This document shows, one piece after another, positions 33,864 to 34,429 of a stretch of DNA of 45,805 bases. This DNA comes from Enterobacteria phage vB_EcoS_Rogue1: the sequence record NC_019718.1. One strand, 5' to 3'. The notes under the pieces were generated by a model that was given only the letters and a program-made list of their open reading frames with translations, made no database searches and was not told where the DNA came from. The translations under genes and the position numbers were made by a program. How positions within the stretch are numbered: the first letter of the stretch is position 1; each line of letters begins with the position of its first letter.

Positions 33864-34337
33864 TTACTCTTTAGCTTTTCGTGCTTCTTCTCTTTCTTTC
33901 TTAACCTTTCGCCATGATTTACGCTGCGGCTTGGTTGCTAACTCAGCTTCTGTAACAACTCGAAGCATCTGACGCTTCTTGCATCGCAGTGTTAGAGGCT
34001 TGCCGTTACCGTCGAACTGTAAATCAGGTCGGCAGAATGTAGCCCTGAACCCCTCGCCAGTTCGCTTATATCGATTATGCGCAAGCTGTGCGCCGCGAGC
34101 TGAAATCATTCCCCGCTTACACCATTCTTCTACAGCCTGGCGCGTAACCTTTAGCTGCTTAGCTAGATTGGCCTTGCTGCCGTAGAAGTCCAATACAATC
34201 TCAAGGCGCGCCCTTAATCCTGCTCTCACTTCATCCTTTAGTACGTAGTAACCTGATGGACGCTTACGCGGCTTCTTGTCTTCTGTGCGAATTGTTCCGT
34301 TGTTACCATTAAGAGTACGCTTGTCAATTGAATCCAT
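33864..34337 (-). CDS. HTH DNA-binding protein (putative transcriptional regulator), basic termini
   Basis: Helix-turn-helix-like segment ANLAKQLKVTRQAVEEWCKRGMIS; Lys/Arg-rich N- and C-termini; GAGGTGAG RBS. Confidence 0.55.
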   Translation of the reverse strand: MDSIDKRTLNGNNGTIRTEDKKPRKRPSGYYVLKDEVRAGLRARLEIVLDFYGSKANLAKQLKVTRQAVEEWCKRGMISARGAQLAHNRYKRTGEGFRATFCRPDLQFDGNGKPLTLRCKKRQMLRVVTEAELATKPQRKSWRKVKKEREEARKAKE

Positions 34338-34350
34338 TTTCTCACCTCAA

Positions 34351-34393
34351 TAGCACTTTTTGTTAAACATTGGTTTAGATGGCTGTTATTATA
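34351..34393 (+). promoter_or_regulatory. palindromic box TAGCA-CTTTT-TGTTA (34351-34365) plus -10-like TATTAT, in a divergent promoter region
   Basis: Box lies 14 bp from the start codon of the minus-strand HTH gene and upstream of the helicase gene. Confidence 0.5.
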
Positions 34394-34429
34394 TCGTCAA
34401 TCGAACGAACATTAAAGGCATTTGATATT

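Follow-up and report, generated by a model that had tools for sequence, protein, structure and literature searches.

The 92-bp bidirectional control region between two divergent genes of Enterobacteria phage vB_EcoS_Rogue1 was analysed within a 45,805-nucleotide (nt) stretch of DNA (NC_019718.1; hereafter the window), which corresponds approximately to the entire genome of about 45.8 kb. On one side lies the gene for a 157-amino-acid (aa) Cro-fold protein, labelled 'transcriptional regulator' and phrog_2856 in PHROGs (33864-34337, - strand), and on the other a RadD/SF2-type helicase gene (34430-36373, + strand), the first gene of its operon. A short repeated box (34351-34365) and two -10 hexamers on opposite strands occupy the region between them. 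We consider it somewhat probable that the box forms part of an activator-type promoter of the helicase operon, and that this promoter is coupled to that of the regulator gene through the overlapping -10 hexamers, so that the region would constitute both a defined promoter architecture and a switch. More generally, the sequences define the box as the upstream half of a promoter class, composed of a box at about -42 and a -10 hexamer without a -35, which appears to be used by about 15 promoters of the genome. The box family and the 'transcriptional regulator' annotation were already known; the new elements are a defined promoter module, conserved divergent -10 hexamers that overlap, an invariant box and protein arm set against a hypervariable recognition helix, and a winged-helix protein as a rival candidate for reading the box.

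The comparison covered 80 loci around homologues of the regulator, to which further loci were added later, as well as 40 kb of Vibrio phage Vc1 and one contig of the most divergent lineage found (P0112). Promoter coordinates (-42, 'leader') are derived throughout from the positions of -10 hexamers. Fifteen of the sixteen boxes in the window are followed, 21-23 nt downstream, by a TAnnnT hexamer, and these modules lie ten on the + strand and five on the - strand. The box at the regulator locus is 79 nt away from the helicase ATG (34430), and the other 14 copies are 63-84 nt away from a start codon, all of them facing the downstream gene. Of 318 non-identical related modules, 307 have their best TAnnnT 21-23 nt downstream of the box, most often with a 22-nt spacer (215 modules) and less often with one of 21 nt (70) or 23 nt (22). 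At the canonical -35 position, TTG occurs in none of 437 non-identical modules, and -35 scores barely exceed background. The box is read as a promoter element because of this fixed distance to TAnnnT and the missing -35 TTG. If the start site is placed about 7 nt after the -10 hexamer, the centre of the box falls at about -41/-42. Aligned by strand, the whole module reads aaaTAGCAC-nnn-TTGnTAAAa, 21-23 nt, TAnnnT (mostly TATAGT or TATATT), about 5 nt, CATCGAAACGA, Shine-Dalgarno sequence and start codon.

A contrasting class is represented by a canonical sigma-70 promoter without a box (493-521, + strand; TTGATA-17-TATAGT), which drives the DUF7174 gene (555-1103) and is probably immediate-early. 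Its leader, CCATCGAAACG, is like that of the box promoters. Since this box-less promoter has the same -10 and leader, the box and a true -35 seem to be alternatives, and their mutual exclusion is, as judged from the sequences, the signature of promoters that would need an upstream-bound factor.

The box itself is the core of a larger element. When TAGCA-N5-TGCTA is searched with at most one mismatch, 16 matches are found in the window, in comparison with 2.39 +/- 1.49 in shuffled sequences, and none of 100 shuffles reaches 16. The first-pass annotation had described a genome-wide family of palindromic boxes; the family is real and its copy at 34351-34365 is where it was placed, but the palindrome there is imperfect. 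This copy reads TAGCACTTTTTGTTA, with TGTTA instead of TGCTA in its right half, and it is separated by 13 nt from the regulator ATG at 34337. The 15-nt box is the centre of an oriented, asymmetric 21-nt element that fits the consensus aaATAGCACnnnTTGnTAAAA, and the copy at the locus (34348-34368, + strand) is caaTAGCACTTTTTGTTAAAc. In the 318 modules, the A directly before TAGCAC, which lies outside the search pattern, is 96% conserved; the C of the right half-site (C13, in TGCTA) is 58% conserved while its mirror-image G (G3) is 100% conserved; and the flanks are A...A rather than A...T. Therefore, the dyad is only partial, and on this sequence evidence the element is asymmetric and unlike a site for a symmetric dimer. 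Information content peaks at G3, C4, C6 and G12, and only the centre and the flanks are A/T-rich. The box is identical in Klebsiella phages, in Vibrio phage Vc1 and in the P0112 lineage.

A 21-nt direct repeat with the same consensus has been described in phage TLS (Phage 2024, PMC11447400), where 21 copies run in the direction of transcription, about 76 nt ahead of start codons; according to the paper, T1, Rtp and Rogue1 have the repeat as well. Its function was left open between a stoperator, an enhancer-binding site and an UP-like element, and the paper names neither a binding protein nor a -10 partner. The element described here shares with the TLS repeat the consensus, the orientation with transcription and a similar distance to the start codon; sequence comparison adds that a -10 hexamer follows at a fixed 21-23 nt, that no -35 TTG is present, and that the copy at this locus is arranged back-to-back with the regulator gene.

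The region around the locus (33000-36500) is 99.4-99.8% identical to that of Escherichia phages AHP42, AHP24, AHS24, AKS96, C119, phiKP26 and phiJLA23, and 98.9% identical to that of phage JK06; AHP42 and the other near relatives belong to Rogunavirus in the Drexlerviridae, i.e. to the T1-like phages. The 157-aa open reading frame has its counterpart in AHP42_36, annotated as 'transcriptional regulator', with a DNA primase gene downstream on the same strand and a divergent gene for an ATP-dependent helicase. Among 72 non-identical versions of the intergenic region, 71 carry the box just upstream of the regulator Shine-Dalgarno sequence, facing the helicase gene, so that the divergent arrangement is a conserved one. 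In the window, this Shine-Dalgarno sequence is GAGGTGA (34342-34348, - strand; read from the sequence), and relatives keep 'cacctc' beside the start codon. Reading towards the helicase, the box is followed by a weak -35-like hexamer without TTG (TAAACA, 34364-34369, + strand; this promoter matches 4 of 6 positions at -35) and, 21 nt past the box, by an extended -10 (34384-34392, + strand) composed of TGt and TATTAT (34387-34392). On the other strand, a putative sigma-70 -10 of the regulator gene (TATAAT, 34388-34393, - strand) overlaps the helicase -10 by 5 of 6 bp, and its -35 is weak (TTTAAT/TTAATG at 34410-34416). The AHP42 annotation also places the regulator promoter at the overlapping hexamers. 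A leader motif, CAATCGAACGAAC (34398-34410, + strand), is a variant of the family-wide CATCGAAACGA, and the helicase gene has AAAGG (34414-34418) as a Shine-Dalgarno sequence; its annotated start is 34430, and the start of the longest open reading frame would be 34379.

Among the 71 versions with the box, TATTAT is found on the + strand in 62 and TATAAT on the - strand in 60, with an offset of +1 in 66. Because the overlapping hexamers are conserved across relatives, the heptamer TATTATA appears to have been selected to serve as a -10 on both strands. The regulator transcript is predicted to start near 34381, which would place the box at +17 to +31 of its leader. The box thus comes to lie in the regulator leader because the regulator has its own opposite-strand -10 overlapping that of the helicase, and by its sequence context the box belongs to the helicase-operon promoter, where its distance from TATTAT would put its centre (34358) at about -41/-42. 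Both positions, in the likely 5' leader of one gene and at about -42 of the opposing promoter, agree with what the first-pass annotation had proposed. A role of the box at the RNA level was rejected: the leader is less structured than its shuffles (z = +1.48), and Rfam finds only a tRNA in the genome.

Behind the regulator gene, a Rho-independent terminator (33831-33858, - strand) with an 11-bp stem and a T run, also annotated in AHP42, lies between the regulator and primase genes. The primase gene (32888-33863, - strand) has no recognisable promoter of its own and follows 52 nt behind the regulator gene, across this terminator. Therefore, it seems to rely on read-through from the regulator promoter. 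The helicase gene carries at its 5' end two copies of a direct repeat, AAAAC(C/A)GATTGAA, at a distance of 22 bp (34434-34468); the copies are in different reading frames and lie at about -53 to -87 of the putative regulator promoter.

The way in which these parts may work together can be potentially described as follows. A trans-acting factor would bind the box at about -41/-42 and recruit sigma-70 RNA polymerase, which could occupy only one of the two overlapping promoters at a time. Occupancy of the box would thus turn the helicase promoter on and, by occlusion, the regulator promoter down. The primase gene, which lies behind the regulator gene and has no promoter of its own, would likewise be transcribed less when polymerase is recruited to the box promoter. 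Competition between the overlapping -10 hexamers is a more likely form of coupling than the direct autorepression by a bound dimer that had been suggested earlier; the latter is weakly motivated, as the box is downstream of the regulator start and off its core promoter.

A site centred at about -42 and abutting the -35 region is found at the PRM promoter of phage lambda, with OR2, and at class II CRP/FNR promoters. The poor or absent -35 of class II-type promoters has its counterpart in the modules, none of the 437 having the TTG. With lambda PRM/PR and cI at OR2, as with class II CRP/FNR sites, the locus would share a dyad-like site, predicted to be centred near -42, that abuts a weak -35; with lambda it further shares divergent promoters in one control region and the Cro/cI-type fold of a candidate protein. 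In lambda, however, the operators are symmetric and the recognition helices stay conserved together with these operators, whereas the site here is asymmetric and helix 3 of the candidate is variable. The -10 hexamers of PR and PRM do not directly overlap, whereas both hexamers overlap here, and binding to the box is, in this case, only proposed.

Several points weigh against this reading. The helicase promoter also has the extended -10 (TGn-TATTAT) in addition to its 4/6 match at -35, so that it may not need an activator in order to fire. Some late genes (11035 and 15169) also have canonical promoters in front of them; therefore, no clean division into early and activated promoters is evident. 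That the box does not vary among phages of Escherichia, Klebsiella, Vibrio and other hosts would suit a conserved host target equally well. Finally, the literature searched on T1 transcription and start-site mapping yields no start-site, binding or expression data for T1-like phages, and the papers searched name no factor that binds the box promoters.

Which molecule would read the box is a separate matter, and the likelihoods given for the candidates need not add up to one, as they answer two questions that overlap, namely whether there is a phage factor at all and which protein would be that factor. An activator encoded by the phage itself is, with some reserve, the probable case. That the host alone supplies the recognition, either through RNA polymerase (a composite UP-like or displaced -35 site) or through a conserved gamma-proteobacterial protein, is unlikely but has to be weighed seriously. 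Besides the invariance of the box across hosts, the A/T tract that forms the centre of the box falls where the proximal UP subsite would be, the TTG of the box lies 5 bp upstream of the normal place of a -35, box promoters precede early, middle and late genes alike, and an UP-like role was raised by the authors of the TLS study (PMC11447400). On the other hand, the most conserved positions of the box are G/C (AGCAC, TTG), unlike those of UP elements, and assignment as an UP element, a site for the C-terminal domain of the RNA polymerase alpha subunit (alpha-CTD), fails on the conserved G/C at G3, C4, C6 and G12. Nor does TTGnTA behave as a true -35, since the -10 is 21-23 nt away from it and no -10-like sequence is found 16-18 nt downstream of it; the common 22-bp gap is outside the tolerance of sigma-70.

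Other host readings of the box were also set aside. A sigma-54 promoter (TGGCAC-N5-TTGCW) would need two more nucleotides than TAGCAC-N3-TTGC provides and GG in place of AG (16 copies), and it is further disfavoured by the separate -10 hexamer 22 nt downstream. IHF-, Fis- and FNR-like readings do not fit in spacing or consensus, as far as inspection of the sequence against the consensus sites can serve as a lead. No E. coli factor is known to us to have a site like the box.

The 157-aa protein is the candidate named by the first-pass annotation. Its homologues are found in 829 phage records, essentially all Drexlerviridae. Its N-terminal arm (D5-K25) is near-invariant; an all-alpha Cro domain (35-95) follows, and after it comes a conserved segment, GFRAxFCRPDLxFDxNG (96-112). 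Residues 48-80 match the Pfam families P22_Cro (PF14549) and YdaS (PF15943) at 24.3 bits, under the gathering cut-offs of 30.2 and 30.0, and some homologues carry precomputed P22_Cro/YdaS hits. An AlphaFold2 model built on 24 homologues (mean predicted local distance difference test score, pLDDT, 88.7; residues 1-20 only 52-59) predicts a five-helix all-alpha Cro fold with the helix-turn-helix (HTH) at helices 2-3. The protein had been announced as an HTH protein of 157 aa; the open reading frame is present, and the predicted fold bears the HTH out.

P22 Cro, N15 Cro and Xfaso1 Cro are about 60-70 aa long; the protein here differs from these all-alpha Cro proteins in having 157 aa, an N-terminal arm that is disordered and invariant, and a segment conserved on the C-terminal side, and it is encoded by a virulent phage with no immunity region. 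It has no relation in sequence or fold (by fold search only) to Mu Mor/C or to the DNA-binding domain of T4 MotA, and neither these proteins nor the C proteins of restriction-modification systems have its N-terminal arm or FCRPDL segment. The arm, DKRxxNGNNGTxRGxDKKxRK, finds no match among Protein Data Bank (PDB) sequences. Remote homologues of about 100 aa (P0137, P0142, P0143 and P0145) keep helix 1, the HTH and FCRPDL and are without the arm; scans of viral, genome and metagenome sequences for the context of these arm-less homologues yielded ordinary T1-like contigs at most.

In an alignment of 112 homologues, helix 3 (66-75) is the most variable structured segment, with a mean entropy of 1.96 bits, in contrast to 0.70 for the near-invariant arm; other conserved spots are E36, A39 and R44 in helix 1 and the GFRAxFCRPDLxFDxNG segment. 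At the base-reading positions of helix 3, the residue types number 17 (R66), 14 (E70), 11 (E71) and 14 (K74), while Q67 is 76% conserved. The helix is TRQAVEEW in this phage, with Glu at both positions 5 and 6, and it is unrelated in Vc1 (CVRLTNAY) and in the P0112 lineage (PLEYREM), in which the box is unchanged. Co-conservation of helix and operator, as expected in the all-alpha Cro subgroup, is thus not seen if the box is taken as the operator.

These findings bear directly on the earlier model, in which an HTH dimer binds the TAGCA-N5-TGCTA copies, switching the box promoters on and, through the leader copy, repressing its own gene. The Cro fold and half-sites 10 bp apart would suit such a dimer. 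The regulator gene has a consensus -10 that is independent of the box, so the protein could be made first, and its adjacency to the box is kept in 71 of the 72 versions; Q67, at helix-3 position 2, is fairly well conserved, and the arm is near-invariant like the box. The protein is also the only annotated DNA-binding protein of the family core, as the Rha-family protein (27017-27646) and the first early protein (DUF7174) are not part of that core and were rejected as box factors. However, helix-3 positions 1, 5, 6 and 9 admit 11-17 residue types, the Vc1 and P0112 helices are unrelated while the box is identical, the box is asymmetric in its half-sites and flanks, and +17 to +31 is a poor position for repression. 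Adjacency to the box is moreover not specific to the regulator gene, as every other operon also has a box. The dimer model is, on balance, doubtful.

That the 157-aa protein reads the box in any manner is a tentative proposal, and its chances seem no better. Since helix 3 varies while the box is invariant, the near-invariant Asn/Gly-rich basic N-terminal arm, and not helix 3, must make the contact if the protein binds the box at all. Rather unlikely is the fullest version of the proposal, which makes the Cro-fold protein the one master activator of some 15 box promoters in each T1-like phage, with the box read by the arm and the leader copy flipping RNA polymerase between the overlapping -10 hexamers. 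If true, it would be a way of recognising DNA that is new for the Cro family and would supply the activator behind T1-type transcription, which the papers searched leave unnamed.

It is about equally improbable that the 157-aa protein is no global transcription factor and lies next to the box by coincidence, being instead a replication-module protein (a partner of the origin or of primase/helicase) or a Cro-like local regulator with a lineage-specific operator. The gene order primase-HTH-helicase is invariant in every locus examined, including L130 and Vc1, and a hypervariable helix 3 would be expected from lineage-specific operators or from a decayed HTH. The conserved surfaces (arm, E36/R44 and FCRPDL) lie outside the HTH, and helix 1 and FCRPDL are what the arm-less homologues of about 100 aa keep. 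Nevertheless, promoter spacers grouped by helix-3 type contain no group- or lineage-specific motif; no repeated operator is present near the regulator gene, where a search for repeats and palindromes returned only the terminator and the direct repeat in the coding region; and an interaction of the 157-aa protein with replication proteins is unsupported.

Recognition by another phage protein, either a 111-aa core protein or another uncharacterised core early protein, appears a still weaker candidate explanation. The gene for the 111-aa protein (41516-41851, - strand) comes immediately after that for the DUF3987 helicase (41856-43448). Its product, to which some sources give the label 'YdbL' and which has a predicted winged-helix fold, is among the core non-structural proteins shared with Vc1. 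It has no Pfam or NCBIfam match and no family annotation. Its third helix, xRxFxSxxSKEFxAR, is kept across 128 loci, and 15 of 19 residues there are identical in Vc1, versus 53% identity overall. Because this winged-helix core protein exists, the 157-aa protein is no longer unique as the 'most economical candidate' of the first-pass annotation; it is the only annotated core DNA-binding protein, but its hypervariable helix 3 and a second core protein with a DNA-binding fold stand against the rest of that claim. Against the 111-aa protein, its position directly after the DUF3987 helicase gene makes an origin-binding or replication role at least as likely, its gene is itself behind a box promoter, the lack of a Pfam or NCBIfam match applies here too, and winged-helix folds also mediate protein-protein contacts, as in the cullin and kleisin matches of this protein.

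Very improbable is a 'stoperator' (mycobacteriophage L5 type) or termination-linked element acting on upstream transcription, a role suggested in the TLS paper (PMC11447400) and in keeping with an oriented, intergenic element that in many cases borders on the upstream stop codon and in some has a terminator hairpin behind it, since the fixed 22 +/- 1 nt to the -10 and the absent -35 are promoter properties, the phage belongs to a virulent family with no annotated repressor, and most box copies are without a hairpin.

With an activator-type promoter as the preferred reading, a published repeat for which three guesses had been offered (PMC11447400) becomes a defined promoter class, and the readers of the box are narrowed to a short list: the Cro-fold protein, which would use its N-terminal arm, the winged-helix protein of 111 aa, and the host RNA polymerase. 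Should host RNA polymerase alone be the reader, the finding would be an ordinary one; a dedicated activator would imply a compact regulon conserved across the phage records examined (about 830 with the regulator gene). The overlapping back-to-back -10 hexamers at the regulator/helicase junction are a simple candidate for a genetic switch. Phages of the T1-like family (Drexlerviridae) are very common; phage therapy makes use of them, and laboratories know them as notorious contaminants.

The other box modules of the window are distributed as follows. On the + strand, modules with a 22-nt spacer lie at 1187-1229 (TATGAT), 2050-2092 (TACCAT), 19333-19375 (TACAAT), 37432-37474 (TATATT) and, each with TATAGT, at 28871-28913, 36747-36789, 38118-38160 and 39670-39712, and one with a 23-nt spacer lies at 12049-12092 (TATTTT). 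On the - strand, 23-nt spacers are found at 26469-26512 and 45696-45739 (both TATAGT), at 43701-43744 (TATATT), which heads the operon of the DUF3987 helicase and 111-aa winged-helix genes, and at 43899-43942 (TATATT), which also has a near-consensus -35, ATGACA; the module at 44862-44904 (TATATT) has a 22-nt spacer. The degenerate sixteenth box, TATCACTTTTTGTTA (39406-39420), is followed by a terminator hairpin without a -10 hexamer, and may be a decayed module. A scan for the box aimed outside the Drexlerviridae gave returns saturated by T1-like contigs of about 50 kb.

Rho-independent terminator hairpins are present in the spacer between box and -10 at 12064-12086, 43905-43927 (- strand) and 44868-44889 (- strand), as well as in modules of loci L024 and L052; because the hairpins sit in the spacer, the terminator of one operon is interleaved with the promoter of the next. 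The initial transcribed sequence CATCGAAACGA begins about 5 nt past the -10 hexamers, e.g. at 36795-36805, 38166-38176 and 43685-43695 (- strand), in most promoters and in most genera of the family, and it might act in start-site selection, mRNA stability or translation. In two modules, an inverted repeat, GATGGGG-TATAGT-TACCCCATC, surrounds the -10 (28898-28921 and 39697-39718), and weaker GATG...CATC versions occur in other Rogunavirinae modules.

Some records outside the expected hosts carry the same system. A 46.7-kb sequence (NZ_VSMK01000220.1) filed as Nitratidesulfovibrio liaohensis strain XJ01 is an Rtp-like coliphage genome with the same regulator, boxes and layout as here, and is probably a contamination of the Nitratidesulfovibrio assembly; several 'Campylobacter phage' records are likewise T1-like. 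Elsewhere in the window, a single tRNA gene is found at 3387-3459 (Rfam, 56 bits), at the position annotated as tRNA-Arg in AHP42. Both ends of the window (1-555 and 45740-45805) belong to a long, AT-rich, non-coding region, which is probably a divergent early control region. At 330-346 lies a perfect palindrome, TTCCTACATTGTAGGAA, with an imperfect second copy at 349-365, and this palindrome is found nowhere else in the genome.

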